This document shows positions 6,447 to 31,914 of a stretch of 64,000 nucleotides of DNA, in pieces. The DNA is from Kiritimatiellia bacterium (GTDB lineage: Bacteria; Verrucomicrobiota; Kiritimatiellia; CAIQIC01; Lenti-01): contig JAQUJC010000004.1 in NCBI GenBank assembly GCA_028681135.1, forward strand, positions 8,107-72,106. The letters run 5' to 3'. A program made the translations under genes and the position numbers. The notes under the pieces are model-generated. The model made no database searches, had not been told where the DNA came from, and saw only the letters and a program-made list of their open reading frames with translations. How positions within the stretch are numbered: position 1 is the stretch's first letter; each line of letters opens with the position of its first letter.

Positions 6447-6452
6447 GGCCAG

Positions 6453-13133: not shown

Positions 13134-14114
13134 CTACCCAGGTTCTTCGGCCCCTTCTTCACCGCCTCCACTGACGACTGGAACAGAGGTCGTCTGGCCA
13201 GAGATGTTGCCCGTCTTGCCGCCAATCTCGATCCAGTTACCATTGAGGGTGCGCCCAGTAAAGACCCTGGCCGCCACCGTTCCTTGCAACGTACCCACAA
13301 TCTTGACGTTCACACCCGCCTTGCTGATACCCTCGCATTCAAAGGATGCCACGATGCTATCCCCATCCGTTGGCAAGGGGCTTTCCTGATACGTGTACTT
13401 GGCGGACTTATCATTGCCCTCTTCATCGGCCCCCACCTGGGTGATGTCCGTGTTTTGACTGCCGGATGCCGACTGCATCTTCTTGATCCGACCGCTATAG
13501 GTGGCGCCATTGTTGTCGGTGAACGTCAGGTGCTGCCCTTGATGCATAATATTGAATGAATAGATACTGAACCGGGTTGATCCGGGTCTGGCACCGCTCC
13601 CAGAAGCCCCCTCGTTGGACACTTCATATGAATAGCTCGCACGAACAATGCCGTTAAAGACCGGCCCGATCACACCTGGATTCAGGGAATAGGTCCACGT
13701 TCCAGCCACATAAGAAATGGTTCCAGACCCCTGCCCTCCGCTCAGGAGACCGTTCCCATCGTCCGAGATACTATCCCACAGCACACCCGAACTATTGCTA
13801 AAGTCGATTTTCACGGATCCGGCAGAAATGTTGCCCTTCGTGAGCTTGCCCGAAAAAACAGTCTGCCCTCCCGAAAACCCTGGCTGGCTTTCATTTGAAA
13901 CCGAGAGAATGTTTGTGCTGCCAGGCGTGGCAGGCGTGGTGGTGTAATCGGTCACCAGAAAACCACCAGCCGCACTACGGTACACCCCGCTGAAGTTGAC
14001 CCAATCATAGGAGGAACTCCAGCTTTCGCCGTCACTGGTTGACGTCCACTCGCATCCCATGAGACCCAGCGCCGCTATTGCTGCGCACATACCGATTAAT
14101 ATAATCCGTTTCAT
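13134..14114 (-). CDS. Putative lipoprotein of unknown function, rich in Ser/Gly/Thr. It is the last gene of the giant-protein operon.
   Basis: The signal peptide plus lipobox reads MKRIILIGMCAAIAALGLMGC. No catalytic motifs are evident. GC content is lower than in neighbouring genes. Confidence 0.6.
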   Translation of the reverse strand: MKRIILIGMCAAIAALGLMGCEWTSTSDGESWSSSYDWVNFSGVYRSAAGGFLVTDYTTTPATPGSTNILSVSNESQPGFSGGQTVFSGKLTKGNISAGSVKIDFSNSSGVLWDSISDDGNGLLSGGQGSGTISYVAGTWTYSLNPGVIGPVFNGIVRASYSYEVSNEGASGSGARPGSTRFSIYSFNIMHQGQHLTFTDNNGATYSGRIKKMQSASGSQNTDITQVGADEEGNDKSAKYTYQESPLPTDGDSIVASFECEGISKAGVNVKIVGTLQGTVAARVFTGRTLNGNWIEIGGKTGNISGQTTSVPVVSGGGEEGAEEPG

Positions 14115-14222: not shown

Positions 14223-17200
14223 CTACTCCACGTACCGAATACGGAAGAACTTGGTGCCCCGACCGGGTGCGGGCGACACCGTGTTAGTATAAACCCCAGG
14301 CTGGGTGACCGCCGCCCGGAATTCCTCTTTCCACCCGCCTGGGGCCAGATTGGTGGCCGATTGGACCACGACGACTTTAGGCATGAGGCCAAGCACCTCG
14401 TAGGTCAACAAGAGCTGCTCTCCACTCTTCACCAGTGGTCCAACTGTCAGTTTAGGAATAGCCAGGGGCGCTGGATAGGTTTGGGTGGGATCTCTTCCCT
14501 GCGCAAAATTATCAATGTCTTTCCAGCCATCGCCACTCAAGTTGGACTGACCGTTCATGGTGGTGAGATTGCCCGCATAGCGATATTCATACGAGTCGAC
14601 GATTCCATCGTTATCGGTATCGGCATCGTAGATGACCAGATCGTTACCTGAATATTCGGCTAAGTTCCTGATCTTTATCCGTTTTTCAGCATAATCCACG
14701 CTATAGATAGTTGGGGTGTCAACGGTCCGGTCGTCCCGGCTGCCCTTGACCAACCCCCAGTTCTCGCCTTCATCCAGCACGCCATTGTTGTTTCGGTCGT
14801 AGAAGGCACGGACATGGAAATCACCAATCTCAACCCCCATCAGACTATACTCCCAATAGCCCGACCGGGGAATGGCCAACGCCTTGATCAAGACGCCGTT
14901 GCCGGAATACGCTTCGGCCACGATCTGAGCGTTAGATTCCCATCCATAGTAGTAAATGCGCCCCTTAATCATGGCGGCCCCGCCCTTTGCCGGCGGCTTG
15001 AAGCTCACCGCGAAATTCACCCAGTCGCTGGTGACGGATGCGCGCGGGTTGTAAGCCCGGACCTGGATGCGATACTGGCCATTCGTGAGAGCTCCGAAGC
15101 CAGCCAGCAACGGCAAATCAATTTCCGCATTCCCATCCAGGTTCACATAAGGCCGGTATTGGGTGGTGTTCAACACCGTCTGACCCGTTGCCGCATTCTG
15201 GATTTGAATCTGAATCCTGGTGGTATTAGGGTCCAGTTTCATGCGCAGTTTTTCGCGGGCAAAAATAAGATTGCCCGTCGGATATTCAACCACCGGCTTC
15301 GCTAGGGAGGACGGATAGGCGATCGCATTGGTCCCGCTGGCGAACACAACGCCATCGACAGTTCCAACCGTCCACTCATAGGAGCCGTACATCGGCTCGA
15401 TACCGCCCAGTTTCAGATCCATTTCCATAATGTTCGGGCGGCCCAGCGACTCAAGGTTGCGGGTGGTCGAGTAGATGATCGGTTTGCCCGCCTCGCTCAG
15501 CGCTTTGATCGCGACCCGGTAGGTGGTTCCAGCGACGTGCGCGATCGCCTCTTGAATCGCACCCATCTGCTGTTCCCAGGAGAAACGAATATATCCGGCG
15601 GGCTTGTCAGTTAGAGGAATCTTGATGTTCACTGCACCCAACTGGATGTCTTCTATACCGCTCTCGCTAAAGCCGAGCCACTCACCTGCATTCCACTTGC
15701 CATCGGCATTCATATCGATAAACGCCATGAAAATATTGGGACCTTTGTGTACATGGCCAATCGACCATTCAGTGACAGTTGCCATCGTTCCACTTTCAAA
15801 GACGCTTTGGACGGGAATCAGGACTTGAGCGTCTGGTGCCTGCATTTCAAGATCGGAAAAGGCCCACACAATCAAAGCCACAGCATCCGGCTCCAGATAA
15901 CCATCATCTGATATCTCAAATTCGGTAGCCACTACATATTCAAGAGCTTGGCCATAAAAATTGAACTTAAACTGGGGCAAAGGAAACGATTTTCCATCGT
16001 CTGGCCTTGTCGGGGATACAATGGTTCTATCCACAATTTCCCATTGGACATCCCAAGTTTGATTGCTTGCTATCCAGTTTGATACTGCTTGATAGCTATA
16101 ATCAACACCGGTTCCCAGATACTCGGACAAGTTATCCCAGCCATCGTTATCTGGATCGAGGTTGGGATCGTATCGCCGCGGGCTGCAGGCTAGCGGGAAG
16201 ATCGACTCCCAGGCATCGGGCATTTTGTCGGTATCCGTGTGCAGGGTGCCATAGGTCGCACCAGTGGTGGGGCTGTCATAGTCGCCTCGACCATCGCCAT
16301 CGGAATCGAATCGATTGGGATCAGTTCCGGCCTGCAATTCCGCCCAGTTGTTCAGACCGTCGTGGTCTGGGTCGCCCCAGGCACCAAAAGTGAAGTCGGC
16401 CGGGTCGTAGACATAGCCGACCTCGTCGCCAGGCGAGCTATTCCCATCGGGGTCCATGCCATTCAAGATATCCCACCAGTTGGGAATGCCATCGTAGTTG
16501 TTGTCTTCCTGGAAGGGATATTCGGCCGGATCCAACTCTACGAACTGGACATCGCTGATCATTTGACCGGCATAATCCCAATCCAATGGATTCTGGTAAT
16601 CTTCCAGAGTGAACCCGCCATCATCCGCCGGATAATAGCCGGCTAAGGCCAACCGATAGATCTGGATGGGATCCGTGAGGATCGAGGGATAATCGCCGGT
16701 CTCCATGCGCATGGCCGGAAAAATATACACTCCCGGTTCCTCTGCGTTGTCCTTTACTATTGCGCGATCTTCCGCCAACTCGCTGCGCTGGAAGTCAAAG
16801 TTGAAGTAGGTGATCAAACCGGGTTCGTTGCCGTACAGGCTTTGCTTGTTATAGAGGTTCAGCTCTCCGCGGGACAAACCGCGATTCCAGACCCGGACTT
16901 CGTCGGCATCGGCCGCAAGCTGATGGCCAATCGAGAGCGGACCTGCCAGGCTGCGAACCCCCCAGTTCACAATTTTCTCTCCCAAGGGCACCAGGGTAGG
17001 ATCCTGGACGGCATCGATGATTCCATCTACATATAAGGCCGCCTTGTTGGCATCACGCACATAGGCGACATGATGCCACTCCCCATCATTAATGGGCATG
17101 GCCCCGACGATATTATTGACGGTGGGATTCAAGATGACCTCAGACTCATCGATCACACCTTCTTCCCCTTCTTCCTCCTTGGTATAGGCGAGCACCCAGC

Positions 17201-20200
17201 GTCCGATCAGGGTGCCATCGGATTGCATGCCGAGATAATAGTTAAAATCCTCGCCGCCGAGATCGGTACCGGTATTCCAGCGGGCGATAATCGTTCCAGG
17301 CGACTGGCTCGTTGTTTTCACCCAGGCTTCCAGCGTCCAAGTGTCCAGGGAATCGATTGTAATGCCGGTAACGGGGTCCGCCGTCAAGCAGTTCTGCCGC
17401 AAATGATCATTGCCGCCGGTGGTGCGCAGGACGGCTGGATCCAAGGCGCCGTAGCCCAGGAACAGGTTGCGGCCCTTGAAGGCGGCAATTTCGGCATCCG
17501 AGCGGGAAATGGCCCAAACGCGGATTTCCTTGAGGTCGCCTACATATCCATTACCACCGAACACGAGGTCGCCAGGGCCTTGGGCCGGGACCAGTGTGGC
17601 GGGGCCATAGTTATTCCGCTTGCCATCCACAAACAGCGACAACACGCCCGTCGCCAAATCAAAACGAGCCGCCACATGGGTCCATTCGGAGAGCGCCAGG
17701 GGCGTCAACCCAACGATTTCCTTGATGACTCCGCCCGCGCCGCTTTGGAAGCGCACATAGGGCATGGCGTTGGTAGTCAATCCCAGTTCATAGTTGATCC
17801 GGCCTGTGGCTTGAACCTGGCGCGAGACCAAAGAAACGCGAGTGGCCGGATAGGCGGCCGGGCGAACCAGCGCTTCGATCGTCCAGTTGGTCAAGCTGTG
17901 GCGTTCGGTCTCTTCCAAGCCGATCTTGTCGCTAACCACCACCTGCCCGACACCCCCGCCATCGCCAAATCGCAGCGCCCGGAAAATCATCGGGCTGTAG
18001 GAACGCCTTGGATCACTTTCCCGATTATCTACCCCACGGACTTCGTCCCCATCGTTAATTTCATCGTCATCGGTATCCATTCTGGTGGGATCCGTGAAAT
18101 AGATATTCAACTCGTCATAGTTGGACAGGTCATCGCCATCGGAATCCCAATCGGCGTCGGAGATAATGCCGGCGGGATCGAGTGAGAACTCGTTGAACGG
18201 ATCGACCCCCAGTCTGTAGGACCAATAGTTGTTGATGCCGTTCCCGTTGGGATCCAGGTTGGCAATGGAGTCACCCAACGGATCGTACCCGTATTGCTGG
18301 TACCACCAATCGGGAATGCCATCGCCATTGGAGTCATAGACTGTGTTGGTTCCCGGTCCGGCCCCATCCCACAATTCAACAACGGAGTCGATGCGCGCAA
18401 AACGCAACGGCAGCAAGTCATTGAACAATGGCGACTGGGTGGCGGGGTCGAATGCCCGAGCGACCGGATACACATCGGGGTGGCGCTCCATCCGGTAAAA
18501 ATTGGCATGATAGTAGCCAAGGTTGTAAGGGTTAGCGGTATTCGGGAAGGAGCGGGTCAGGGTGTTGTCTGCCAGCGAATAGGTGGAGGTATGGTAGGGA
18601 GAATCGGCGGGAGGATCGAGCGGCAGCCGGGCGACAAGGTTAACGATCCAAGGAACATACAGGTAGTTGTTGTACACCAGTGACCGATCGGCGGCCGTAC
18701 CCCACCACGGAACATGGGGATAGGAACCATCGTTCGGGCGTCCATTTAGAAGATCAAATCCAACCGGAAGAATGCCCTCGCTTGAGGGGTCCAGCAGGTT
18801 GTCGAAGTTATAGAGATACTTGAGTTCGGGCGTGGCATTGGTGGACAGCAGCGGACGTTGGTACGTCTTGACATCGGCCATGCGCAACTTGCGAGACATG
18901 TCGCGTTGCACTTCTGTCATGGTTTTTGCGCCATTCCAAATTCGAACTTCATCCACCCACCCTACAAGGAAGCTGTGCAGATCCGGGGCCGTGAAGGTGG
19001 TTCCCGCCTGAGATCCGACCCAGACCGGCTGGCCATTGACCCGGCCGACGGGATTGCGGTCGGCAGCGCCGACCACGAGCGGGGCATCAAACGTGAAGCC
19101 AGGATTGACATCCAGATAAATCGGATCCGGCGTGGACCAGCCATTGGCAGGACGCTCGGCGGAAGCAATACTCGCACGCATTTCGCCGTTCACATAGAGG
19201 AACAATTTCTTTTGGGCACCATCGTAGACCCCGGAGAGGTGCTGCCACCGGTCGGCTTCCAGCGGGTGGATGCTTTTGGCGATGACATCCTGATACTCGA
19301 GTCCGTCAAAGCCCGCACCTGTATAGGAAACCAAAGGTCGTCCATCGGCATCGATCGCCAGCCGGAAGTTGCGGCGAATGCCTTCCGGAAAACTCATGAC
19401 GTTTCCATCGGGAATCCAGACTGGGCGTTCAACCACGACTTGGAGCGCGCCGGAGGCGGGCTCCACAGGCTTGACCCACGCCTCGACCGTGAATTCGGTC
19501 AGATCGTTCAAGCCATGCAGGAAACTGCCCCGGGTACGAGCGGCGGCATCGCCGTTGAGGTACAAAGCACGGCGGCGCGGTGGTGCCTCCGAACTCAACG
19601 GATCAGTGCTGCCCGGACTTGCTTGCGAATCCACGAGTTCGGCCCGGTCGCCCAGCATGTCGGCATCAGTGTCGAAACCTTCGGAATTTTCGAACGAGAA
19701 CAGATAACTGGGCGGTGTCCAGCCCGAAGGGCCGTAGTACCATCCGGGTGCCAACAAGGCTAGAGAACCCAGGTCGTAGTACAGGTTTACAAAGCTACTC
19801 TGATAGCTGGGGTCGGTGATCCAGGAAGGGGATGGGTCCGTATGATAATACTTGGGCGGGGGCGCATTGGGTTGAAGCGATTCCTCCCAGTTGGGCAATC
19901 CGTCCTGGTCAGGATCGGCAAAGGGCGACCCCGCAACATAGGGGGCCACACGGATGTCAAAGGTGGGGGGCATCCCCGCCAAGACCGTTGCGCCCAAAAC
20001 CATGGAGTTGTGCACATCCAGTACGCCAAACATAGGATTGAGACCGTGGTAGATCTCCCAATAGTCATCCATGCCGTCGAGATCGGTGTCGAGAAGCCGA
20101 GGATTCGTCGAGGTGTAGCGGCTGTTAACGGGTGGGATGAAGAAGAACGGCACCGTATTGACATTGAGGTGCCAATCCCAGGCGAAAGGAGTCCCGGTGA

Positions 20201-22268
20201 AAAAGGCGAATGGATCGTAACCGCCGAGGGGCTGGCCAGGGACCCATTCGGTGTAGCGCCAGTGGTGAACGGCTCCAGACAGATACTCCTGATAATTGAC
20301 CAATCCGTCTTCATCATAGTCGCGGGCGGCATCCTTGACCGTACCATCCATGCCATTGCGCAGATTCTGGTCCGCCAGATCATAGATACGCGAACGGTGC
20401 GCTGTAATCGCTTCCCAGTGGTCGGGAATGGCATCGCCGTCGGTATCGACGGAAGTGGGATTCAATCCGCCGCCGACATAGCAGCTTCCGTTCCATTCCA
20501 CGGTTCCTCCGGCATACTTCAAGACCGCCAAACCGCCGGACACATCTTCGCCCTCCACGACGTCCAAATCCTTGTATCCGCCTTCGGCGCCGTCCACCAC
20601 GCTATCGCCGTCGGTGTCGTCCACGTTGGGATCGGTGGGCCACACCTTGTTGAGCCAAGCGGGATCGAAATGGGTGCGGCCGTTCGGCCACGACGCACCC
20701 CGAATCAGATTGATGTCGTACGCACTGAATTCCATGAAATTGTTCAAGCCATCGTTATCCCCATCCTCCTGGGCGTCGTCCTTGTTCAGGGGATCCAGAC
20801 CCACATAGAGTTCCCACCCGTCGAAAATTCCGTCGCCATCCGAGTCGATAATCATGGGATCCAAGGCATAGCTGTTGAAATTATCGCAGTCCAGCACGCC
20901 CTTAATGAACCCAAGGTACAGCGACGCCAAGAACTTTTCACGACTGGTGAAGGGAATGGTGTTCTCCTGCCCCTTGAGTTCCCGGGTGCTTCCTTTCCCT
21001 AGATAGTTTTCGCCCCACGCGGTGCGCGGATCATACCCCAGGTCGGCATAGACTTGGCCGTGGCGACGTTCTGCCCCGGCACCATCGTCGGTATAGGCCA
21101 TGTAATCATCGGACGGACTACCACCCGCATCCTCCGGGTCAATGGGGTTGAGTCCCTTCCGGATTTCATAGCCATCGGACATTTCATCTGCGTCGGTGTC
21201 CCAATGGAAGGGATCGGTGCCTGCGATGAATTCATCCAAGAAGAAAGCACAATCGGCGTCGAGGTCACCGCTGGCATCGACAGTCAGTTCCGCGCCAAAA
21301 ATCGCCAGCATGTCATTCGCGGGAATGGGCAACACCGGAATATCCCAGTTCACCGTGGGATCAAACGAGGCCAAGTCCAAGGCGACGCCCTCAAAGGGGG
21401 GCGTGGGCACATTCACCAGCGTGCCATAGAAATAGTATTTCCAGCCATCGGATATTCCATCGCCCGCAGTGCTGATCAGAGTGGGATCGGTACCCGGATC
21501 GTCATTGATCCCGGTCAGCGAATTCAGCCCATACCAGCCATCGAACCCGCGCGCCTGGAACCAGTTATTAAACGGGATCACGCCGATATAATACTGGGGC
21601 GGACGCACGCCCGTGGTTGGGAAACGATAGGGCCAATCGGTGTTCAGACCCGCCAGTGCGGCAGGATAATTTCCCGACGAGAATACATTCATCGCACCGG
21701 GTTCCCACCCGCCTGGCATTTTGTCATCCGTCGGATTGCCAGTTGCGCCATTGTCACCCGTCGGATCTTCCGGGTCCAATCCATACGTGACTTCCCATAC
21801 ATCGGGCAGACCGTCCAGGTCCAGGTCTCCCACCCCCTCACCGGCTTGATACTCATGGCTTAAGAGCAGCTCGATTTCCTTGTCTTCCCCACCTACACTT
21901 AGCGTGATTGATACGGGATGGGGTGGTTTTCTATCTACGTATGATTCGGGGACATCACCTAGCCATTTGTATACAAAGCTATCCCGCCCACCCACCGGCA
22001 CAGGGTTCGCAGTGATTTTCAACACGGCATTGCTGGGCACCGACATAAATGCAGGATTTCCCGTCATCGTAGGGCCAGCCGGGAGTAGCTGCTCAATGGT
22101 AATCGTCCCCCCACCTAGTCCCGTCAACCCTTCATAATAATCCAGGGCGCTGACAACAATCACATTGTCTTGGGCAACGGCCACAGAGCCCACCAGAAGC
22201 GTGCCCGCTAAAACACCCAACAAACAAAAATGGAATGACTTCTTCATTTTATTCTCCTGCTTCGCCAA
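14223..22268 (-). CDS. Giant secreted protein (2681 aa). It contains multiple LamG/concanavalin-A-like domains, many thrombospondin-type-3-like Ca-binding Asp-rich repeats, and a C-terminal ~60-aa module shared with the downstream giant paralog.
   Basis: There is an N-terminal signal peptide (MKKSFHFCLLGVLAGTLLVGSVAVAQ). Repeated DxDxDGxxDxxE motifs occur (DSDGDGIFDGWE, DTDGDAIPDHWE, DGDNDGLNNFMEF). LamG-type signatures are present (FTVEAWVKP, WTIEALVRPAA, WTLEAWVKTTS). The C-terminus reads ...YEVLGLMPKVVVVQSATNLAPGGWKEE...GVYTNTVSPAPGRGTKFFRIRYVE. Confidence 0.8.
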   Translation of the reverse strand: MAKQENKMKKSFHFCLLGVLAGTLLVGSVAVAQDNVIVVSALDYYEGLTGLGGGTITIEQLLPAGPTMTGNPAFMSVPSNAVLKITANPVPVGGRDSFVYKWLGDVPESYVDRKPPHPVSITLSVGGEDKEIELLLSHEYQAGEGVGDLDLDGLPDVWEVTYGLDPEDPTGDNGATGNPTDDKMPGGWEPGAMNVFSSGNYPAALAGLNTDWPYRFPTTGVRPPQYYIGVIPFNNWFQARGFDGWYGLNSLTGINDDPGTDPTLISTAGDGISDGWKYYFYGTLVNVPTPPFEGVALDLASFDPTVNWDIPVLPIPANDMLAIFGAELTVDASGDLDADCAFFLDEFIAGTDPFHWDTDADEMSDGYEIRKGLNPIDPEDAGGSPSDDYMAYTDDGAGAERRHGQVYADLGYDPRTAWGENYLGKGSTRELKGQENTIPFTSREKFLASLYLGFIKGVLDCDNFNSYALDPMIIDSDGDGIFDGWELYVGLDPLNKDDAQEDGDNDGLNNFMEFSAYDINLIRGASWPNGRTHFDPAWLNKVWPTDPNVDDTDGDSVVDGAEGGYKDLDVVEGEDVSGGLAVLKYAGGTVEWNGSCYVGGGLNPTSVDTDGDAIPDHWEAITAHRSRIYDLADQNLRNGMDGTVKDAARDYDEDGLVNYQEYLSGAVHHWRYTEWVPGQPLGGYDPFAFFTGTPFAWDWHLNVNTVPFFFIPPVNSRYTSTNPRLLDTDLDGMDDYWEIYHGLNPMFGVLDVHNSMVLGATVLAGMPPTFDIRVAPYVAGSPFADPDQDGLPNWEESLQPNAPPPKYYHTDPSPSWITDPSYQSSFVNLYYDLGSLALLAPGWYYGPSGWTPPSYLFSFENSEGFDTDADMLGDRAELVDSQASPGSTDPLSSEAPPRRRALYLNGDAAARTRGSFLHGLNDLTEFTVEAWVKPVEPASGALQVVVERPVWIPDGNVMSFPEGIRRNFRLAIDADGRPLVSYTGAGFDGLEYQDVIAKSIHPLEADRWQHLSGVYDGAQKKLFLYVNGEMRASIASAERPANGWSTPDPIYLDVNPGFTFDAPLVVGAADRNPVGRVNGQPVWVGSQAGTTFTAPDLHSFLVGWVDEVRIWNGAKTMTEVQRDMSRKLRMADVKTYQRPLLSTNATPELKYLYNFDNLLDPSSEGILPVGFDLLNGRPNDGSYPHVPWWGTAADRSLVYNNYLYVPWIVNLVARLPLDPPADSPYHTSTYSLADNTLTRSFPNTANPYNLGYYHANFYRMERHPDVYPVARAFDPATQSPLFNDLLPLRFARIDSVVELWDGAGPGTNTVYDSNGDGIPDWWYQQYGYDPLGDSIANLDPNGNGINNYWSYRLGVDPFNEFSLDPAGIISDADWDSDGDDLSNYDELNIYFTDPTRMDTDDDEINDGDEVRGVDNRESDPRRSYSPMIFRALRFGDGGGVGQVVVSDKIGLEETERHSLTNWTIEALVRPAAYPATRVSLVSRQVQATGRINYELGLTTNAMPYVRFQSGAGGVIKEIVGLTPLALSEWTHVAARFDLATGVLSLFVDGKRNNYGPATLVPAQGPGDLVFGGNGYVGDLKEIRVWAISRSDAEIAAFKGRNLFLGYGALDPAVLRTTGGNDHLRQNCLTADPVTGITIDSLDTWTLEAWVKTTSQSPGTIIARWNTGTDLGGEDFNYYLGMQSDGTLIGRWVLAYTKEEEGEEGVIDESEVILNPTVNNIVGAMPINDGEWHHVAYVRDANKAALYVDGIIDAVQDPTLVPLGEKIVNWGVRSLAGPLSIGHQLAADADEVRVWNRGLSRGELNLYNKQSLYGNEPGLITYFNFDFQRSELAEDRAIVKDNAEEPGVYIFPAMRMETGDYPSILTDPIQIYRLALAGYYPADDGGFTLEDYQNPLDWDYAGQMISDVQFVELDPAEYPFQEDNNYDGIPNWWDILNGMDPDGNSSPGDEVGYVYDPADFTFGAWGDPDHDGLNNWAELQAGTDPNRFDSDGDGRGDYDSPTTGATYGTLHTDTDKMPDAWESIFPLACSPRRYDPNLDPDNDGWDNLSEYLGTGVDYSYQAVSNWIASNQTWDVQWEIVDRTIVSPTRPDDGKSFPLPQFKFNFYGQALEYVVATEFEISDDGYLEPDAVALIVWAFSDLEMQAPDAQVLIPVQSVFESGTMATVTEWSIGHVHKGPNIFMAFIDMNADGKWNAGEWLGFSESGIEDIQLGAVNIKIPLTDKPAGYIRFSWEQQMGAIQEAIAHVAGTTYRVAIKALSEAGKPIIYSTTRNLESLGRPNIMEMDLKLGGIEPMYGSYEWTVGTVDGVVFASGTNAIAYPSSLAKPVVEYPTGNLIFAREKLRMKLDPNTTRIQIQIQNAATGQTVLNTTQYRPYVNLDGNAEIDLPLLAGFGALTNGQYRIQVRAYNPRASVTSDWVNFAVSFKPPAKGGAAMIKGRIYYYGWESNAQIVAEAYSGNGVLIKALAIPRSGYWEYSLMGVEIGDFHVRAFYDRNNNGVLDEGENWGLVKGSRDDRTVDTPTIYSVDYAEKRIKIRNLAEYSGNDLVIYDADTDNDGIVDSYEYRYAGNLTTMNGQSNLSGDGWKDIDNFAQGRDPTQTYPAPLAIPKLTVGPLVKSGEQLLLTYEVLGLMPKVVVVQSATNLAPGGWKEEFRAAVTQPGVYTNTVSPAPGRGTKFFRIRYVE

Positions 22269-22327
22269 CGATCCTGATGGTGCCGATCCCGTTACGATCC
22301 TTGTCGTTCAAAATCTGCTTTCCGGCG

Positions 22328-22888
22328 CTACTCGCGCCCCATTTCTTGACTGCTGCTCCCGGACCCAGAGGCCCCTTCACTCAATAAAGCCCTGATTTGC
22401 TCCATCAAATCGGCACGCCGGCTGCCAAGGGCTCGATATTCTTCTGACTCATTCAGCAGCGTGAGGCGGGCGACCACCTTCATTTTTCGCTGCTCGCGCA
22501 ATTCCGATATCTGAGCGTTCCATTCATCGGACTTTGCAGGCGTTTGCTCCAATTGCTCAATCAAATCTCCAATCTGCCGACTGATTTGCTTGATTTCAGC
22601 CGTCAGCTCCTTAAGCGGTCCCGCTTGCGCCGCTTGGGTCTCAAACTGATGCATTTCTCGTTTGTTTTGCATGAATTCTGTACGTAATTCCGCCATACCG
22701 GATTGCGCGACTTGCTCCGTTATCACGACCACCGCCTCAGCAGCGGCAGGTTCCGTCGCCGAAATGTCGCCAAAAGCCCCCCGGGGAAATACAGCCAACA
22801 CCACCGTCAGTGCCATCCCCATGGCACTCAGCAAGACACGCCAGGGGGCTACGCCCAACTGCGTGGTGTAAGTAATTGCCTCAATCAT
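22328..22888 (-). CDS. Small signal-anchored coiled-coil protein (186 aa), encoded immediately upstream of giant protein 1.
   Basis: An N-terminal hydrophobic segment (VLLSAMGMALTVVLAVFP) is followed by ~130 aa of heptad-like Glu/Gln/Arg/Leu-rich sequence. It has the same architecture as the ORF 31911..32489. Confidence 0.65.
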   Translation of the reverse strand: MIEAITYTTQLGVAPWRVLLSAMGMALTVVLAVFPRGAFGDISATEPAAAEAVVVITEQVAQSGMAELRTEFMQNKREMHQFETQAAQAGPLKELTAEIKQISRQIGDLIEQLEQTPAKSDEWNAQISELREQRKMKVVARLTLLNESEEYRALGSRRADLMEQIRALLSEGASGSGSSSQEMGRE

Positions 22889-22983: not shown

Positions 22984-25900
22984 TCATGGAATCCTGACCG
23001 GACGGAAGAACTGGAGAGGCTCGTCCATGGTGTTGGTATAGCCCATCACCCCGTCCACCGTCGCTGTGAAGACCGCTCCCGGCACAGCACCCCACTCCCC
23101 GGAAGGTAAATTTGAGGAAGACTGCACGGTATAGATTGCGCCAGCCCTTCCCAGCCATCTGACCGAGAAGGGAGTGCTGGACGACACATTTGCCACGAAC
23201 GGACCGACGGCCGGATCCGTGGGATCACCGCTGTGCGCCACTTCCTGGCCGTCATCCCAGCCATCGCCGTCCGTATCCGGATTCTGCGGATCGGTCTGGA
23301 GGCGGAATTCGCCAATATTCAAGAGCCCATCGCCATCGTCATCCAGCAGGGCATCGAGCGGGTTGGTAGGATCCAATCCATTGAGCACTTCCCACGCATC
23401 GTCCATGCCATCACCATCGCCGTCCACGGTCGCCTCCAATTTCTGCAAGCGATTATTCCACGTGTCCGCCACAATGATCGAGGACGACATCAAGGACGGT
23501 GCCGCATCATGGGGAAAGCTGACCTGTCCATCGCCGCCCCCTTGCTGTCCCAAACTTCCCACATGGGCTCTGGACGAGTCCAGCACCTGAATCCGGTGGT
23601 TGGAAGTGTCCGCCACAAAGAGACGATTACCCAAGCCGATCTGAATGCTCATGGGTTTGTTGAACTGCCCCGCACCGGTACCAAACGAGCCGGTCTTCCA
23701 TAGGAATGTGCCGCCGCTCGTAAAGCCTTGTAAGCGGTTGTTTTCGGTGTCCGCCACATAGACAATTCCGTGCTCGTCCACCGTGATCCCCTGGGGAGAG
23801 TTCATCTGACCATTGGCGGTTCCAAAGACACCGAAGGAGAACAACTGGACGCCATTCGGGTCGAAGACCTGAACGCGGTGGTTGTCCTTGTCCGCGACGT
23901 AGAACCGCCCCAACGGCCCAATGGCCACATCACGCGGATTATTGAACTGGCCCACCGCGGACCCGTACGACCCGAATTGGCGTTCAAAGACCACCGCCCC
24001 GGTCGTCGGATTGAAGGTGAACACCTGAATGCGGTGATTGGCCGAATCAGCCACGGCGAAACGGTCGGCATTCGGCGCCTTGCCCAAGCCGTAGGGCGTG
24101 GCGAACTGGCCCGCGTTCGTGCCATCCGAGCCGTAGGTTAGCACATGGGTGAGCGTCGTGCGGTCCCAAACCGAAACCCGGTTGTTCTGGCGGTCCAGCA
24201 CAAATACAAATTGATTGGTCAGGAACAAGCGCGTCGGAAAATGGAATTGGTTGGTCTCGCTGCCAATTGTTCCTGCCACCTGCTCTAGGGTCCACTCCGC
24301 TTCCAAGGGGACAATCGGCGCGCGTGGATCCATCCCGTTCAGAATGCAGTAGCCGTCGGGAATGGAATCGCCATTACTATCCCGCACCGTGGCAAGGGAA
24401 CCGGGGTATCCCAATACTTGGTCGACCACCCACGTTCCAAAATCGTGGGTCTCGTTCGCGGATAGATCCAGCGCATATACCCCCGAGTCGCCATACGCCA
24501 CGGAACCCTCGAATGTCGCCGCATCCCAGGCGCGGACATAGACGTTGCGGACCGGGGTGGTTTCCATAAAGTCGTGATGGAAAATTTCATCAAATCGACC
24601 CAGTTCGGGCAACCATTCATAACCCACGCCGATCCGTCCATGATTCTTATTGAAGGGGAAGGTGAACAGCACGGTGTCATCGCCCGTGGTGCTGCCATCC
24701 GAAGCGGGCAGATTGACAACTCCATCGGGACCGGCGTACACGAGCTGGAATAGGCTGGCTTCGGCCCCACCCGTTCCCGACAGGAACTGGTTCATCCAGT
24801 TCTTCACGCCTGTGCTGGATTGTACACGCAGGGTGGGTTGAACCACATTGAAGGTAACCGGAATCGCTTGAACAACCGCCCCGGGATAATTGCCGCGAAT
24901 GATGAGCACCGCCTCGTGGAGGCCAATCGTCAGGCCCGCCGATTCAGCCTTGAGTGTGACCGGCAGCTCGCTGTTGTCCACACTGGCGCTGACGGGCGAG
25001 GCATTCAACCACGGGACCGCCTCCAGCAACTCGTTTTCGACCAGCCCCCGCAAGACATCCTGCCAGGCACCCCTGGTTTGCCATTCGGCGGCATCCTGGT
25101 TTCCGTTCCAAAGAATCACCACGCCGCCGGTGCCGGTTTCGCGGCGCATCAGCTTGCTGGCCCCTTCCACCCCGAAGTACACCGCCGGAGCTTCATTGGT
25201 ATCGACCGTGGCTTCATCATAGGCCATGGAGGTGACCGCCACATGATCACCGGGCTGAATGTCGACCCAGAACGGGTCGATCGGCAGCGCCTGGACCAGT
25301 TCCGCCATGTCTTCCGCCTCCGGCGCGCGGTCCAGCGAGTCGGACCCGACCAGATCGCGCAGACGCCGATCATCCGGACGGGACAATACATGGGCACCGA
25401 CCACGATGAGCTTGCCGCCCTGATTCAGATAGGTCTGGAGCAGCGATTCTTCGGCCACCGACAGCAAGCGGCCCGTGCCAGCGGTTCCGCCCAGATCCAG
25501 AATCACGAGATCCTGCGGCAAAATAGCCTCCGGATCAGTGCTATGCCTTCCTGTCAGCACGCCCTCCACTGTGACCAGATTGTTGGACCACATCGATACG
25601 GTCCAGCCCGCTTGCTCCAGCACCGGCTGGACGAGTGCCAAGGCATTCCGGTCGGAAATCAAGGCAATCTTGCGCGGTTGGGCGGTGAGGATATCGAACT
25701 CAAATTCATCAACAGACAGATTGGAAAACAGCAGTGTTTGTTCCTGATCCTGTCCGGCCTGGGCCGCAAATACCATCTGCGTGGCCCCAAAGGCGATTTC
25801 GGGACGGCGCAAAGAGAAGTCTGCGATTTGGTTGCCGCCGACAAGGGTCCGAATGGTCGCCGGCGGGGTTTCGTGACTTTCGCCCAGTACGCGGAACCGA

Positions 25901-28900
25901 TAAGTACCGTCTTCCAATCCGTCGATGCGATAGGATCCATTGCTTTCCGTCAGGACTCGGCCACTGGATGCCCCCCAGTATTCAACCGTCAAGCCGGCCA
26001 GGCCGGCCGCTGTCAGCGCATCGCGCACCGTTCCGGAAATGGTCTGTCGCGGGGCCACCGGAAGGGTGAACGGCAAGACTCCATTCGCCAGAGTCAGGGT
26101 GAAATCCACGTCGCCGGTTGCATTCGGCAGGGTAACGCGGAAGCCCGCGAGGTTGACCTGCTGGTCGCCGCTGGAAATGCCCGGCCAGGTGGCCGTTCCC
26201 TGCACGATGGTCACGCCCGGCGTGGTGCTGGTCAGTGTGCCGGTCGGACTCATATAGAGAGCTGAGCCATCGTTGAGCAGACGAATGAACAGGTCCACGG
26301 TCTCGGCGGGTTCGGCGTGGCGGTCGCCGTCGCCGGTCGCCTGATCATCCACTGCGACGTCCGTAATCACAGGAACTGGGGCCGGGGCCACGTTCACGGT
26401 CACCGGAATCGACAGCTCATTGGCTCCGCCGCGCACGACGATATGGGCGATATAGCTCCCAGCGGGCAGTTGACCGCCCGCGTTGATGGTGACGCCGACC
26501 GAGAGCGTATCCAGCGACACGATGTTGGCTCTGTGGGTATCCACCTGTAGCCAGAATGCCTGGATGTGTTCCAGCGCTGCCGCCGCATCCAAATGGCCCG
26601 CCGAGGACACCACGCCTTCCAGGACGGGGTCGCGGCGTGCGCCCAGCATGATGGCGTCGCGCAGCATGTCATAGGTCGCCCAGGGTGCCACGGATTTCAA
26701 CAGGCCCGCCACGCCGGCGACATGAGGGGCGGCCATCGATGTGCCGCTGAGTCGCTCGTAGGCATCAAGCGTTCCGTACATATAGGTGCTGAGGATATCC
26801 ACGCCCGGCGCGGCAATATCCACGGACTGCGCGCCGTAGTTGGAGAAGTCAGCCAAGGCTCCATCATGGTCCGTGGCTGCCACGGAAATGATGTTGTCGA
26901 GATTGTACGAGGCCGGATACGACCGGTACGGCTGATCGTCGTCGTTGTTCACCGCCTCGTTGCCCGCGGCAGCAACGAACAGATGCTCGTTCGCCATGGC
27001 GTATTCGATCATTTCATATTCCACTCCGCTGAAATAGTAACCCCCGTAACTGTGATTGCTGATTTTCACGCCGTTGTCGACGGCATATTCCAAGGCGGCC
27101 AGAATGGCGTCGGAGGACAGCACGGCCTCTTCGATGCCCAACTCATTCACCCCCACGGTCGCCACCTTCAACGGCATGATTTTGGAATGCCAATTGACGC
27201 CCGCCACCCCGATGCCGTTGCCGCCGGAGGCCCCCACCGTACCCGCCACATGGGTGCCGTGCTCGACGCCAGCCACCGGGTCAGGCGACGGATCGGGGTC
27301 GTCATCGCCGAAATCGTAGCCGGCAACCAGATTGTCTGCCAGATCGACATGGTCGAGTTTCACGCCGGTATCCATCACCGCAATGACCACATTGGTGTTG
27401 CCCACCGTGGTGTCCCAGGCTTCCTGAGCCCGGATATCCTCCGCGAGGGTTCCACCCGTCTGGCGGGTGTTGTCCAGTCCGTACATCTGCGAATAGAGCG
27501 CATCGTTGGGCACGGCGAACACCTCCCGCCGATAGTTAGGCTCCACGTAGCGAATGGCGGCATCCGTCGTGAGCGTGTTCGCCACCCATTCCATGGATAG
27601 ATTGCCAGGAACCCGGACGTGCGCAGCCGACACCCCGTGGTAGCGGCGCAGAACCTGGCCGCCCACCGCGGCCAACGCGCTCGCCTGCGCTTGAATAGCG
27701 GAGCCATCTTCAAACCGAACGAGCAGCTCCTGCTCCACCGCCTCGGAGGGCAGCGCGGTCCAATCGATCTCCGGCAGATCCAAGCTCCCAATTCGGTCAT
27801 GGGGAACACCCTGTACCAATTCCAATCCGATTTCGACAAATCCAGCGTAGGGGCCGTCATTGGTGAGGTCCAACGTCAGATTAGTTTCCACGCCCTCCGG
27901 CAGATTAACAACGATGTTGGTAGGCAGGGCGGAAATGCCCCATGCCGCCACCTCAAAGTCCACATTTTCAGCATTGGCGGAGGCAATCACCACGTTCGAC
28001 GAGGGCGGCGCGCCATAGGGCGCGGGCGGCAGCACATAGACGTCGTAGGTGTTGTTGGTCAGGCCAAACAGGCTGTAGTCGCCCGCGGCATCGGTGAGGG
28101 TCTGCACAGTACCTCGGTCGCTGACGGCCTTGACGACCGCGCCTTCCACAGGATCGGTGGTGTCCAGGTCGGTGACCTGTCCGGAGATGGCGTAGCGTAC
28201 CGTCACCGTCAGATCAAAGGTATGGGTGGTGACCCGGGCATCCGCATCGGTGACCTCTAGTGAAAACGGCAGTACATCGCCCTCCCCGGCCAGCGGATCG
28301 ATCTGGATCTGAGGATATTCCGCCAACGGCGGATCCAGCACTGGGCCTTCCACGCCGCCGGGCAGGACATGGGCCCAGGACGCATTGGGTTGCGTCACCG
28401 TTGTGGCATCAGCCCCCGTATAGCTGAGGACTCCTTCCAGCGACAACGCCAAAAGACTGCCCGAATTACCCAGCATGATATCCATATCTACGGCTTCGCC
28501 CGGTTCTGCAAAGGCGTCGCCATCGCCGCCGGTGACTCGCACGCCATACACGTACAGAGTGGGGCTCGCCATTACGGTCAAACTTGCTGGAATCAAAATA
28601 TCCTCGCCGCCCGCGTCATTGCTCATCAAACGGATAACGGCTTCATAGGGCTGCTCCGAGGCGGCCAGCGCCGAGGCATCGGCGGTCAGGGCAACCGGCG
28701 CACCCGCGCCGACGGGAACCACGCCTGCGGACGGATCCGTCGTCAGCCAGATGGGGACTTCCGTCATGGCCGGATGTGCCGCAACGTCCACCACGATCTC
28801 GTATGACAAAGGCAGGTCCCCCGCCGCATTATCCAGACTCAGAGTGTCCAGCGCGCTTTCGCCTTCGTTCACTTCCCACTCATATATCAACGGAGCCGCA

Positions 28901-31900
28901 TTGGCCCAGGCTGTCCCCAAGCCGAAGTTGGCCATGGATGGCCCCGTCGCCGTGATTACGTCGCTGGGTGAATACTCGCCAGGCTTTAGCGCCTGAATAT
29001 CGTAGGCCACACCGGGAACCAGGCCATGCAACCCGTAGGAGCCATCGGCTTCAGATGTCGCCATGACATCCGGATACCCCGACGCCTGCCCGCGAATCAA
29101 GGCCTCTTCGATGGGTGCGCCGGTGAACAGATTGGTCACGAGACCATATACGCTTTCCCGCGTCGCGATTTCCAGGGTCAACATATCGGGATACGGCCCC
29201 AGACCGCCATCGGCGGTGGCGCTGTGGAAAACAGTGAAAGGCGTTTCCTGGGGAATATCCACCTCCGTCGACAGCGCCAATTGCGTCCCGCTCAAGGCCG
29301 AATCCCCTGGTTGCAGATCCCCGTAGAGAACATACGAAGTCGCAGGCGTCAAGGTCACCTCGGGCGTCGGCACGGTGACCGATGCCTGCACGTTGCTGAA
29401 GATCTGGGTCTGCATGGAATTGAAGACTTCCAAATTTAAGAAAAAGCTCTCACCTGGTTCGGCATGCCCATCGCCGTCCCCGCCGGCTGCGTCATCGATC
29501 TCATAACCGATGATATTGATGCCCGGCGGCAACACATTGGAGATGCGGACATCGTCAATATACCAGCCCGCCGCCACACCCTCATCGCCGGACTCAATAC
29601 GGAACCGCACCCGGATCGTTTGATTGGCGAACCCGGGCAGGTCGAGGCTCACCGCCTGCCAGCCCGCAGAGGAGCCGGTGACCAGCTCCGTGACGTTGAC
29701 CCAACCGGAGCCCCCGTTGACCTCGATGACGCCAAAATCGCTTTCCGCAAACTGATGCCACGACTGGAACTCAAGGCGGGGGCTCAACTTGACGGCCACC
29801 GGCGTGCTGACCAGCGATGCCAGGGCCAGAAGCGGATAATTGCCATCCAGAACGGTGCCCCAGAGCCGTTCGCCCGAGGTGGCGCCCGGAGGACCGTAGG
29901 ACGGCATGCCGTATTCCCAGCAGGTCACGTCGTTCAGGTTGGTGAACGTCCAACCGGCTTCGCCCGATTCCATGTCGTTTTCATAGACCGTGCGGCGGAC
30001 GGGGGTGATGAAGGTCAAGTAGTCCTCTTCGTTCGTGGAGGTCAGATCCGTCGGCGCCGAGGCCTTGTTCCCCGCGTAGTCCTCTGACAAAACGGCCATG
30101 ACGTATTTCGTCGAGCCTTCCACCGGGACCGTCACCGTATGCACGTATTGCGTCGTGGCGCCGATCACGGTCGGTGTGCTGACATAGGTGCCGCCGCCGA
30201 TTTCCGGCAGCAGCGCATCCAGCCCCCCGGGCGGAATTTCTGTCGTGAGGATGTAGCGGGAATCCGCCGGCTCATCCGTCGACCAGCCGACCGTCGCAAA
30301 ATCCTCCGCCACGTCCACCATCTGCACGTCGCTGATGACCGGCGGTGTATCGTCGATCAGGACTGAAATAGAGGCCGTTTTGAGACTCGGACTTTCATAG
30401 GTGACGGTCAGGGTGTCGTCCTCCACCGCCGTTGTGCCGCTGACCAGGTCAAACGAATTCGTGAATGTGGTTTCATCGACGCCGACCGTCAACAACGTCT
30501 CCGTGCTGGCCCACCGCACGACATCCAAGGGGTCCACGACTTCCACGGCCACGTCCACATCCGTCGGCAGAGGAGCAATCAACGTGGGGTCGTTCACCGT
30601 GACCTCGACCGTGGCGTCCGAACGATAAGCCTGGCGATCCAACGTGAGTTGCGGCCCCAGAGCAGCGATCGCGGCAAACAGGTCCAGTTCGCCGCCGGTG
30701 ACGGACTTGCCATCCAATGCCGGATTGGGCGCCACACTCTCCAAAATCGCGTCCCGGATCTCCTGATAGGTATAATCCGGATTGAGACTCCACAACAAGG
30801 CCGCCGCGCCCGCCACGTGCGGGCAGGCCATGGAGGTTCCTTGATACGAATCAAACTGATCGCCGGCCCCGCCGGGGACCGTGCTCAGAATATCCACGCC
30901 CGGCGCCGCCAAATCCACGCTTTCAAGCCCATAATTGGAAAATTCGGCCAGCGAACCGCCTTCCGCGATAGCCGCCACCGAGATGATGTTAGGCAAGTCG
31001 TAGCTGGCCGGATAGGCCGGGGTTTCGTCGTTGTCGTCACCCACTCCGTCAAAACCGCCGTTGCCCGCCGCCGCAATAAATAGCTGCCCGTACGTCTCCC
31101 CGGCCACTTTGATGGCATCATACAAGCCCTGGCTGGCACCGCCACCGCCCCAACTGTTGTTGGTGATCTTGATCTTCAGGGCCGTGTTGGTGGCCGCGTA
31201 TTCCACCGCGCGAATGGCATCGTCCGTACTGCCGTACGGATCCAGGAACTTCAGGCTGATCATCTTGACGTTCCAGTTCACGCCGACCACGCCGAACGTG
31301 TTGTTGCCGACCGCGCCAATGGTGCCGGCCACATGCGTGCCATGTCCGGCGTTATCCCGTTGATCAGCGGTGTTGTTGGCGAAATCATAGCTGCCCGGCG
31401 CGATATTGGCAGAAAGATCCTGATGCGTGGTAAGAATGCCCGTATCGATGACCCCGACGACAATCTCTGGGCTGCCAACGGAGATATCCCACGCTTCGGG
31501 CGCGCGGATGCGATCCATACCCCACAAATCGCCATCGACATAGGAAGGATCATCCGGGGTCGTCGCGTAGGCCCGCACGATGTAGTTGGGCTCGACATAC
31601 GCCACCGCCGGATGGGCCATGTATTGTTTGGCCACCTGGGCCATTGAAAGCCGCTGCGACAGCTTCACGTGGACAACCGGGGTGATCGAAAACTGCCCGA
31701 TCACCTGTGCGCCAAGCTGTTGATGAAGGGCATGGATGCTGGCCGCTGCCACACCCGGCTTGAAGCCGATCAGCAATTCGCCCGGGACATAGTCCTCGGT
31801 GAAAACCGGGCGGTTCCAATCCACCCCCGCTGGAGGGGCGGCCCACCCCATGCTGGCCATGAATAGGCTGCCCAGGAGCAGCCAAAATCCGCAACGTGCT

Positions 31901-31914
31901 CGATTGGTTTTCAT
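22984..31914 (-). CDS. Giant secreted multidomain protein (2976 aa). It has two complete inhibitor-I9 + subtilisin (S8) protease units, CARDB-like and carboxypeptidase-regulatory-like beta-sandwich domains, a six-repeat NHL beta-propeller, thrombospondin-type-3-like repeats, and the shared C-terminal module.
   Basis: A signal peptide is present. S8 unit 1 has the catalytic residues in VGVIDTG, HGTHVAG and GTSMACPHVAG, around nt 31530-30650. S8 unit 2 has them in IAVMDTG, HGTHVAGTVGA and SGTSMAAPHVAG, around nt 27560-26500. Both units are preceded by an I9-like propeptide. NHL repeats (NHRIQVF, NHRVQVFDPNG, NNRLQGF, NHRIQVLD, NNRLQKLE) lie around nt 24050-23270. Asp-rich repeats follow (DGDGDGMDDAWE, DDDGDGLLN, DTDGDGWDDGQE). 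The C-terminus reads ...YTVQSSSNLPSGEWGAV...GYTNTMDEPLQFFRPVRIP. Confidence 0.85.
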   Translation of the reverse strand: MKTNRARCGFWLLLGSLFMASMGWAAPPAGVDWNRPVFTEDYVPGELLIGFKPGVAAASIHALHQQLGAQVIGQFSITPVVHVKLSQRLSMAQVAKQYMAHPAVAYVEPNYIVRAYATTPDDPSYVDGDLWGMDRIRAPEAWDISVGSPEIVVGVIDTGILTTHQDLSANIAPGSYDFANNTADQRDNAGHGTHVAGTIGAVGNNTFGVVGVNWNVKMISLKFLDPYGSTDDAIRAVEYAATNTALKIKITNNSWGGGGASQGLYDAIKVAGETYGQLFIAAAGNGGFDGVGDDNDETPAYPASYDLPNIISVAAIAEGGSLAEFSNYGLESVDLAAPGVDILSTVPGGAGDQFDSYQGTSMACPHVAGAAALLWSLNPDYTYQEIRDAILESVAPNPALDGKSVTGGELDLFAAIAALGPQLTLDRQAYRSDATVEVTVNDPTLIAPLPTDVDVAVEVVDPLDVVRWASTETLLTVGVDETTFTNSFDLVSGTTAVEDDTLTVTYESPSLKTASISVLIDDTPPVISDVQMVDVAEDFATVGWSTDEPADSRYILTTEIPPGGLDALLPEIGGGTYVSTPTVIGATTQYVHTVTVPVEGSTKYVMAVLSEDYAGNKASAPTDLTSTNEEDYLTFITPVRRTVYENDMESGEAGWTFTNLNDVTCWEYGMPSYGPPGATSGERLWGTVLDGNYPLLALASLVSTPVAVKLSPRLEFQSWHQFAESDFGVIEVNGGSGWVNVTELVTGSSAGWQAVSLDLPGFANQTIRVRFRIESGDEGVAAGWYIDDVRISNVLPPGINIIGYEIDDAAGGDGDGHAEPGESFFLNLEVFNSMQTQIFSNVQASVTVPTPEVTLTPATSYVLYGDLQPGDSALSGTQLALSTEVDIPQETPFTVFHSATADGGLGPYPDMLTLEIATRESVYGLVTNLFTGAPIEEALIRGQASGYPDVMATSEADGSYGLHGLVPGVAYDIQALKPGEYSPSDVITATGPSMANFGLGTAWANAAPLIYEWEVNEGESALDTLSLDNAAGDLPLSYEIVVDVAAHPAMTEVPIWLTTDPSAGVVPVGAGAPVALTADASALAASEQPYEAVIRLMSNDAGGEDILIPASLTVMASPTLYVYGVRVTGGDGDAFAEPGEAVDMDIMLGNSGSLLALSLEGVLSYTGADATTVTQPNASWAHVLPGGVEGPVLDPPLAEYPQIQIDPLAGEGDVLPFSLEVTDADARVTTHTFDLTVTVRYAISGQVTDLDTTDPVEGAVVKAVSDRGTVQTLTDAAGDYSLFGLTNNTYDVYVLPPAPYGAPPSSNVVIASANAENVDFEVAAWGISALPTNIVVNLPEGVETNLTLDLTNDGPYAGFVEIGLELVQGVPHDRIGSLDLPEIDWTALPSEAVEQELLVRFEDGSAIQAQASALAAVGGQVLRRYHGVSAAHVRVPGNLSMEWVANTLTTDAAIRYVEPNYRREVFAVPNDALYSQMYGLDNTRQTGGTLAEDIRAQEAWDTTVGNTNVVIAVMDTGVKLDHVDLADNLVAGYDFGDDDPDPSPDPVAGVEHGTHVAGTVGASGGNGIGVAGVNWHSKIMPLKVATVGVNELGIEEAVLSSDAILAALEYAVDNGVKISNHSYGGYYFSGVEYEMIEYAMANEHLFVAAAGNEAVNNDDDQPYRSYPASYNLDNIISVAATDHDGALADFSNYGAQSVDIAAPGVDILSTYMYGTLDAYERLSGTSMAAPHVAGVAGLLKSVAPWATYDMLRDAIMLGARRDPVLEGVVSSAGHLDAAAALEHIQAFWLQVDTHRANIVSLDTLSVGVTINAGGQLPAGSYIAHIVVRGGANELSIPVTVNVAPAPVPVITDVAVDDQATGDGDRHAEPAETVDLFIRLLNDGSALYMSPTGTLTSTTPGVTIVQGTATWPGISSGDQQVNLAGFRVTLPNATGDVDFTLTLANGVLPFTLPVAPRQTISGTVRDALTAAGLAGLTVEYWGASSGRVLTESNGSYRIDGLEDGTYRFRVLGESHETPPATIRTLVGGNQIADFSLRRPEIAFGATQMVFAAQAGQDQEQTLLFSNLSVDEFEFDILTAQPRKIALISDRNALALVQPVLEQAGWTVSMWSNNLVTVEGVLTGRHSTDPEAILPQDLVILDLGGTAGTGRLLSVAEESLLQTYLNQGGKLIVVGAHVLSRPDDRRLRDLVGSDSLDRAPEAEDMAELVQALPIDPFWVDIQPGDHVAVTSMAYDEATVDTNEAPAVYFGVEGASKLMRRETGTGGVVILWNGNQDAAEWQTRGAWQDVLRGLVENELLEAVPWLNASPVSASVDNSELPVTLKAESAGLTIGLHEAVLIIRGNYPGAVVQAIPVTFNVVQPTLRVQSSTGVKNWMNQFLSGTGGAEASLFQLVYAGPDGVVNLPASDGSTTGDDTVLFTFPFNKNHGRIGVGYEWLPELGRFDEIFHHDFMETTPVRNVYVRAWDAATFEGSVAYGDSGVYALDLSANETHDFGTWVVDQVLGYPGSLATVRDSNGDSIPDGYCILNGMDPRAPIVPLEAEWTLEQVAGTIGSETNQFHFPTRLFLTNQFVFVLDRQNNRVSVWDRTTLTHVLTYGSDGTNAGQFATPYGLGKAPNADRFAVADSANHRIQVFTFNPTTGAVVFERQFGSYGSAVGQFNNPRDVAIGPLGRFYVADKDNHRVQVFDPNGVQLFSFGVFGTANGQMNSPQGITVDEHGIVYVADTENNRLQGFTSGGTFLWKTGSFGTGAGQFNKPMSIQIGLGNRLFVADTSNHRIQVLDSSRAHVGSLGQQGGGDGQVSFPHDAAPSLMSSSIIVADTWNNRLQKLEATVDGDGDGMDDAWEVLNGLDPTNPLDALLDDDGDGLLNIGEFRLQTDPQNPDTDGDGWDDGQEVAHSGDPTDPAVGPFVANVSSSTPFSVRWLGRAGAIYTVQSSSNLPSGEWGAVPGAVFTATVDGVMGYTNTMDEPLQFFRPVRIP

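Follow-up and report, generated by a model that had tools for sequence, protein, structure and literature searches.

A predicted FN3-like beta-sandwich domain at the C-termini of two giant secreted proteins of a Kiritimatiellia bacterium

Two giant proteins, here called giant 1 and giant 2, are encoded in a 64,000-nucleotide stretch of a Kiritimatiellia bacterium (contig JAQUJC010000004.1 of assembly GCA_028681135.1); the whole 64-kb stretch is referred to below as the window and positions are counted from its first letter. The C-terminal tails of the two proteins are homologous and the module that they form is kept in the orthologues of both. The module is predicted to be an autonomous FN3/Ig-like beta-sandwich of ~70-77 aa with seven strands. 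In our view the tail is rather likely to be an FN3-like domain outside the curated families, placed as a rule at the end of the protein behind a stalk of TSP3 repeats, where it would act as a structural or docking module. A new sorting signal or attachment tag, as proposed in an earlier sequence-only reading, is unsupported at present and we consider it unlikely. What is gained is chiefly annotation: a compact beta-sandwich family with a profile and a structural model, and a marker for the ends of the giants in a five-gene cassette that is conserved in uncultured Verrucomicrobiota. It also carries the caution that a conserved module at the extreme C-terminus need not be a sorting signal. The transport of very large folded proteins across the outer membrane in the Planctomycetes-Verrucomicrobia-Chlamydiae (PVC) group, or their fixing onto it, is poorly understood and a recurrent terminal domain would provide a useful handle on it.

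The C-termini quoted for the two giants in the sequence-only reading were found in open reading frames (ORFs) of the reverse strand and were confirmed by translation. Giant 1 is the stop-ended ORF at 14223..22268 (minus strand; 2,681 codons from a TTG), which ends ...GVYTNTVSPAPGRGTKFFRIRYVE*, and giant 2 is the stop-ended ORF at 22984..31914 (minus strand; 2,976 aa), which ends ...GYTNTMDEPLQFFRPVRIP. The last residues are ...KFFRIRYVE and ...QFFRPVRIP*, respectively. The intervals originally given for the shared tail, 14223-14420 and 22984-23170, do lie inside the module, but it is encoded on the minus strand and its hidden Markov model (HMM) envelope extends further, so that these intervals are only part of it. 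A plus-strand reading of both intervals was rejected as the translations are meaningless. Translation, HMM envelope and structure prediction place the module of giant 1 at 14226..14456 (minus strand; last 77 aa, ...PKLTVGPLVKSGEQLLLTYEVLGLMPKVVVVQSATNLAPGGWKEEFRAAVTQPGVYTNTVSPAPGRGTKFFRIRYVE; envelope 2618-2694 of the stop-to-stop ORF; stop codon 14223-14225) and that of giant 2 at 22987..23211 (minus strand; last 75 aa, ...FVANVSSSTPFSVRWLGRAGAIYTVQSSSNLPSGEWGAVPGAVFTATVDGVMGYTNTMDEPLQFFRPVRIP; envelope 2918-2992; stop codon 22984-22986).

In pairwise BLASTP the two tails were 32% identical across 73 columns (E=5e-5). The giant 1 module scored 71-136 bits with the A2, A3 and iterated family profiles and the giant 2 module 58-95 bits, far above the best reversed-sequence decoy (7.0 bits, A3 and iterated profiles), and the likeness noted earlier between the two C-termini is thus upheld. 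No other ORF of the window carries the module. Outside the window it is kept in orthologues whose overall identity is 35-70%, and unrelated proteins of independent metagenomes have it too.

The fold was predicted with AlphaFold2 (AF2). With 23 copies of the family as input, the giant 1 tail gave seven beta strands at a predicted local distance difference test score (pLDDT) of 84. An independent prediction for the giant 2 tail, made with copies of the giant 2 type and generic copies only, gave a pLDDT of 85 with the strands placed equivalently. The predicted structure is a sandwich of seven strands in two sheets that can be superposed on FN3 domains. The family signature is W (strand B) ... [YV]-x-V-[QE]-S-[ST]-x-N-L-x2-3-W ... 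Y-T-N ... [FY]-[FY]-R-[IVP]-x3-4-end. As the sequence-only reading had anticipated, the tail is no familiar sorting signal: searched on their own, the tails matched nothing in Pfam at E≤10 or in NCBIfam at E≤1, and none of the PEP-CTERM, LPXTG, GlyGly-CTERM and autotransporter barrel models in these collections matched them, nor did those for the C-terminal domains (CTDs) of type IX secretion systems (T9SS), either type A (PF18962/TIGR04183) or type B (PF13585/TIGR04131). The Pfam fn3 and Big_* models also failed to match the tails at E≤10, so that a fold class is shared with these domains without a curated sequence family. A profile search of all PDB sequences gave no meaningful match and no description of the module was found in the literature. 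The family is thus without a matching model in the Pfam and NCBIfam copies searched. It recurs in secreted proteins of Verrucomicrobiota including Kiritimatiellae.

The distribution of the module was examined with a tail profile made from four sequences, the two tails of the window and two orthologue fragments. This narrow profile was used in one exhaustive HMMER search of 1.84 billion cluster representatives, which yielded 25 proteins with E≤0.001, some 18 of them true carriers. The module extends beyond the two paralogues. Domain mapping showed a single full-length copy in 16 proteins, ending 0-2 residues ahead of the stop. Two further proteins, P0011 (810 aa, 9 copies) and P0017 (2,361 aa, 12 copies), consist mostly of tandem copies which each end ...Y(Q/R)FFR(V/I) and have poly-proline (PPPPPP) linkers between them. 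The remaining large proteins with many weak partial matches were dismissed as noise. Nine of them (P0004, P0012, P0013, P0015, P0018 and P0021-P0024) have their matches on Calx-beta-like repeats, e.g. ...TLTFAKGVGTQTFTVATTED, where each stretch scores 4-17 bits and covers no more than the first half of the profile; these, like other multi-stretch matches including P0026, represent generic beta-sandwich noise. When the search was iterated locally with decoys, it settled at 48 copies, of which 46 are distinct. A word-indexed search was too insensitive for a variable 75-aa domain, giving no match with the two tails and one protein with 23 copies.

One clear exception to terminal placement was observed at locus L012 (GCA_016190065.1), where the gene adjoining that for P0017 encodes a 750-aa protein with a signal peptide, a propeller-like region, one module, a linker and an FGE-sulfatase domain. 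Its single copy (FTLSWPAKVGRRYQIHTATDLDQPWTPL...ARAFFRILELD; 25.6 bits, independent E-value 2.8e-7) is internal, with ~290 aa after it. Overall, the module is preferentially the last domain of a protein and occurs in addition internally and in tandem arrays.

The array carriers show a subtype with a Cys pair (...N(I/L)C(F/L)xW ... (Y/F/H)C(V/I/L/M)...FFRV) in poly-Pro-joined arrays of 8-11 copies; it was seen in P0011, P0017 (L012, 1-7087) and P0027 (L010, 78-374). The copies that terminate the arrays lack the Cys pair and are closest to the terminal copy of the other protein. Some further C-termini resemble the module and were not counted. The proteins upstream of the giants at loci L007-L009 end ...LFFRVVQP, ...IRFYRVVLP and ...VRFYRIVQP and did not score above reversed-sequence decoys in the iterated local search, leaving a resemblance only. 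At L010 (3368-7009) a 1,213-aa PA14/Ig protein ends ...IKIQWTGTGTLESADAITGPWAAVANASSPFSAPTTGSRKFYRLRQ* (...KFYRLRQ), by eye a shorter generic version of the module; it had no significance with the profiles used and did not exceed the decoys of the iterated search. This last resemblance hints that the true family may be much wider.

The coding sequence of giant 1 (14223..22247, minus strand) specifies a Sec-type signal peptide, three LamG domains (Laminin_G_3), bacterial TSP3 repeats and the C-terminal module. The ATG at 22247 is the probable start, in place of the TTG at 22268 in the ORF list, because the orthologue P0003 begins at an equivalent MKKS.... The giant 2 coding sequence (22984..31914, minus strand) specifies a signal peptide, two complete S8 subtilase units (residues ~39-443 and ~1500-1745, a fervidolysin-like propeptide before each), CarboxypepD_reg domains, an NHL beta-propeller, TSP3 repeats and the C-terminal module. 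The signal peptides of the giants were read from their sequences. A short orthologue of giant 2, P0020 (1,556 aa), has one S8 subtilase unit only.

After Sec export the domain would sit, folded, at the far tip of the calcium-binding TSP3 stalk as a structural or binding module, and would most likely dock the giants non-covalently to a partner in the cell envelope, either a protein or a surface glycan, or to each other. Given the internal and tandem-array copies, a structural or docking module is more likely than a new sorting signal, and the tail is probably not a cleaved address tag. In the orthologues of giant 1 the identity of the tail was 60-61% versus 61-62% in the preceding 300 aa, and in those of giant 2 it was 42-57% versus 62-74%. 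Judged by these identities, the tail appears to be under no stronger constraint than its flanking sequence.

The tail was also compared with the tripartite sorting signals as defined by Haft (bioRxiv 10.1101/2023.06.07.544157). Like LPXTG, PEP-CTERM, GlyGly-CTERM and MYXO-CTERM it has a C-terminal site, with the module 0-2 residues from the stop in all intact carriers, and its carriers have N-terminal signal peptides. Unlike them it lacks the combination of a motif, a transmembrane helix and an Arg cluster, is a predicted folded beta domain and matches none of the models. The maximum Kyte-Doolittle hydropathy, KD(19), taken as a 19-residue mean, in the last 90 aa was 1.38 for giant 1 and 0.88 for giant 2, which does not amount to a segment of transmembrane length; the maximum in giant 1 is broken by E, K and P and AF2 gives beta strands only. 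No terminal basic cluster is present in FFRIRYVE or FFRPVRIP, where both Arg residues are in the last beta strand. There are two copies of the module in the window and two per related locus. PEP-CTERM systems do exist in Verrucomicrobiota, often at exopolysaccharide loci (bioRxiv 10.1101/2023.06.07.544157), and the giant cassette resembles such settings in adjoining a polysaccharide cluster. Genes for a secretin, sortase, exosortase, rhombosortase, CPBP protein or T9SS component (Por/Gld/Spr) were not seen in the window. We take the tail to be neither a tripartite sortase/exosortase-type signal nor a member of the T9SS CTD families.

With FN3 and bacterial Ig-like (Big) accessory domains of secreted enzymes and adhesins the module shares its fold class, but it has its own signature (S-x-x-N-L...W, terminal FFR-x4-P) and a far stronger bias to the extreme C-terminus than is usual for them. 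The barrel of an autotransporter (type V secretion system) has 12 strands and is a C-terminal domain of about 250-300 aa (PF03797). The module differs in being 75-77 aa long and a sandwich rather than a barrel, and no Pfam barrel match was obtained on the giants. A signal of the type I secretion system/RTX type was ruled out on two grounds: each giant begins with a Sec signal peptide, and the acidic repeats belong to the TSP3 rather than the RTX kind. The tandem arrays, the internal singleton, the lack of a tripartite layout, the lack of extra conservation and the lack of machinery in the window together leave the earlier proposal, that the module specifies a secretion or attachment pathway, without support. 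The placement that prompted it, at the extreme C-terminus of large proteins with Sec signals, does hold. All carriers with intact ends have a terminal copy.

Several observations weigh against a structural or docking module. A terminal copy ending 0-2 residues from the stop is present in 26 of the 26 distinct carriers with an intact C-terminus, the stop is exactly 5 residues past (F/Y)(F/Y)R in 20 of the 26 distinct tails and the final residue is Pro in 18 of the 26. The terminal copies of P0011 and P0017 are 32% identical to each other and 19-24% identical to the internal repeats of their own proteins, the internal array copies being 54-57% identical among themselves; this hints that the terminal copies of the array proteins may be a terminus-specific subtype. 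As the profile was built from terminal copies, the internal ones are perhaps under-sampled or a functionally distinct branch. The carriers have several unrelated N-terminal architectures, with a signal peptide in all full-length carriers read, and this is the pattern to be expected if carriers had a tag for export or attachment in common. The T9SS CTDs are likewise Ig-like sandwiches of the same size. Some of these points have mundane explanations. The terminal Pro may be a mere strand cap, because G-x-x-PPPP linkers follow the internal copies at the same place, and the divergent copies at the edges of the arrays could be explained by tandem repeats homogenising among themselves. Despite these explanations the fixed stop, the terminal Pro and the terminal subtype keep the sorting hypothesis alive.

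Under that hypothesis, which we judge a minor possibility, Verrucomicrobiota would have a C-terminal domain for secretion or surface attachment that has so far escaped description. Like the T9SS CTD it would be a folded beta-sandwich, recognised on the periplasmic side by a translocon or attachment complex of the outer membrane. It would account for the exact C-terminal copy in every intact carrier with its fixed stop and usual final Pro, for the separate subtype of the array proteins' terminal copies, and for the occurrence of the module on large Sec-dependent carriers as different as the LamG giant, the S8/NHL giant, P0007 and the arrays. T9SS type A CTDs are Ig-like (PMC10202324), and the module is predicted to share both their size and fold class as well as their position at the extreme C-terminus of large Sec-exported proteins; no existing model covers it. 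Proteins bearing T9SS CTDs are, however, limited to Bacteroidota, where they track the T9SS core genes (PMC10202324), whereas the present loci are from Verrucomicrobiota, the nearest genomes being Verrucomicrobiota/Kiritimatiellae metagenome-assembled genomes (MAGs), and neither T9SS genes in the window nor candidate machinery adjoining any inspected locus was found. The internal tandem arrays and the internal-only singleton are unlike T9SS CTDs, and the constraint on the tail is not above that on its flanks. Furthermore, the 25 representative clusters (E≤1e-3, narrow profile) are mostly giant orthologues, which does not resemble a genome-wide set of cargo.

In a narrower version the terminal subtype alone, with its stop 5 residues past FFR and its usual final Pro, would tag cargo for a pathway of Verrucomicrobiota/Kiritimatiellae, as yet undescribed, that translocates proteins over the outer membrane or attaches them to the surface, with the internal and tandem copies forming a related structural branch. 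This is distinctly unlikely in our view. If true, it would mean that a phylum other than Bacteroidota has a functional counterpart of the T9SS CTD.

A third possibility concerns the cassette in which the giants are found. Five genes lie on a single strand in the order 225-aa coiled-coil protein, giant 2, 186-aa coiled-coil protein, giant 1 and 326-aa lipoprotein. The 225-aa ORF upstream of giant 2 (31911..32588, minus strand) has a hydrophobic anchor or signal (internal Met, MLFCRVYSVAFLAVLIAVFPFVGLA) and a coiled coil, with orthologues in L002-L004 and a 166-aa equivalent upstream of P0020 in L014. The 186-aa cassette partner between the giants (22328..22888, minus strand) has an N-terminal hydrophobic anchor or signal and a coiled coil, with BLASTP orthologues in L002-L004 and positional equivalents in L005-L008 and L014/L015. 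The predicted 326-aa lipoprotein directly downstream of giant 1 (13134..14114, minus strand; lipobox ...LGLMGC) has a beta-rich body, no Pfam match and orthologues in L002, L003, L004 and L006 at 31-58% identity. When genomes were scanned with giant 1, eight related loci came up at 31-69% identity, from uncultured Verrucomicrobiota, 'Spartobacteria' and Kiritimatiellae MAGs. No identical protein is on record. By BLASTP, L002-L004 have the whole cassette, and the lipoprotein is shared by L006 too. As an entity of 13134-32588 (minus strand), the cassette spans L002-L009 and L014/L015 in uncultured Verrucomicrobiota/Kiritimatiellae MAGs at 31-70% identity.

Both tails could bind a common co-encoded partner, either the coiled-coil proteins or the lipoprotein, to give a two-giant surface complex in the style of dockerin and cohesin. 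The gene order is consistent with this. Two tail-bearing proteins flank the small coiled-coil gene, with a lipoprotein gene downstream of the giant, in L002-L004, where both giants carry the module, and in L006, where the upstream protein and the giant do so. In L005 the upstream protein has the module and the giant runs past the contig end, and P0020 is in the same arrangement with the downstream giant cut off. A small secreted coiled-coil gene is found at the same position, between a tail-bearing protein and the giant, in L005-L008. Against such docking, the giants of L007 and L009 have a different C-terminus made of W-rich hairpin repeats (the L008 giant is cut at the contig end), while L007 and L008 still have the coiled-coil gene in its usual place, and the module occurs in proteins outside the cassette, namely the P0017 array beside the FGE-sulfatase protein, the P0011 array and P0007. 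We see only a slim chance that the tails are specific to a partner from the cassette. The same two facts weaken the earlier suggestion of a tail read by the coiled-coil proteins, the gene in L007 being beside a giant without the tail. That these proteins are co-encoded, as had been described, does hold; they are small, anchored and positionally conserved. The giants in question are distant orthologues of giant 1 (L007, 8012-20752, 4,246 aa; L009, 4763-17512, 4,249 aa) ending in hairpin-like repeats of the form ...DGTWSYWTW...DGNWRFV...DGEWKFVR, and their different ends indicate that the C-terminal module is exchangeable within an orthologous giant.

Chance similarity, or a recent duplication private to the two paralogues, would fit the modest pairwise signal taken alone, but with profile scores of 58-136 bits against 7.0 bits for the best decoy and conservation in orthologues and unrelated proteins, chance is excluded and private duplication can be dismissed.

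Directly upstream of the cassette is a surface-polysaccharide cluster (32807-43650) encoding an ABC-2 permease, GT87-like, GT2 and GT4 proteins, an AlgX-like SGNH protein and an MBOAT protein, which form an O-acetylation pair, and Wzy_C, a polymerase/ligase. Two ORFs without a Pfam match at E≤0.001 were found on the minus strand at 53170-55407 (745 aa) and 58510-59592 (360 aa). A bacterial alpha-2-macroglobulin is encoded on the minus strand within 640-8540 in two adjacent ORFs, 6453-8540 (HAAS+MG3+MG2) and 2970-6446 (MG5...MG10), adjoining a gene for a PBP1C-type transglycosylase/transpeptidase (640-2973); either the gene is truly split or a frameshift makes it look so. The window also contains a Ser/Thr kinase gene and, on one strand at 46454-49894, a trio encoding a C39-like peptidase, a RimK-like ATP-grasp protein (RLAN N-domain) and a GCS2 glutamate-cysteine-ligase-like protein, which looks like a small peptide-modification module.

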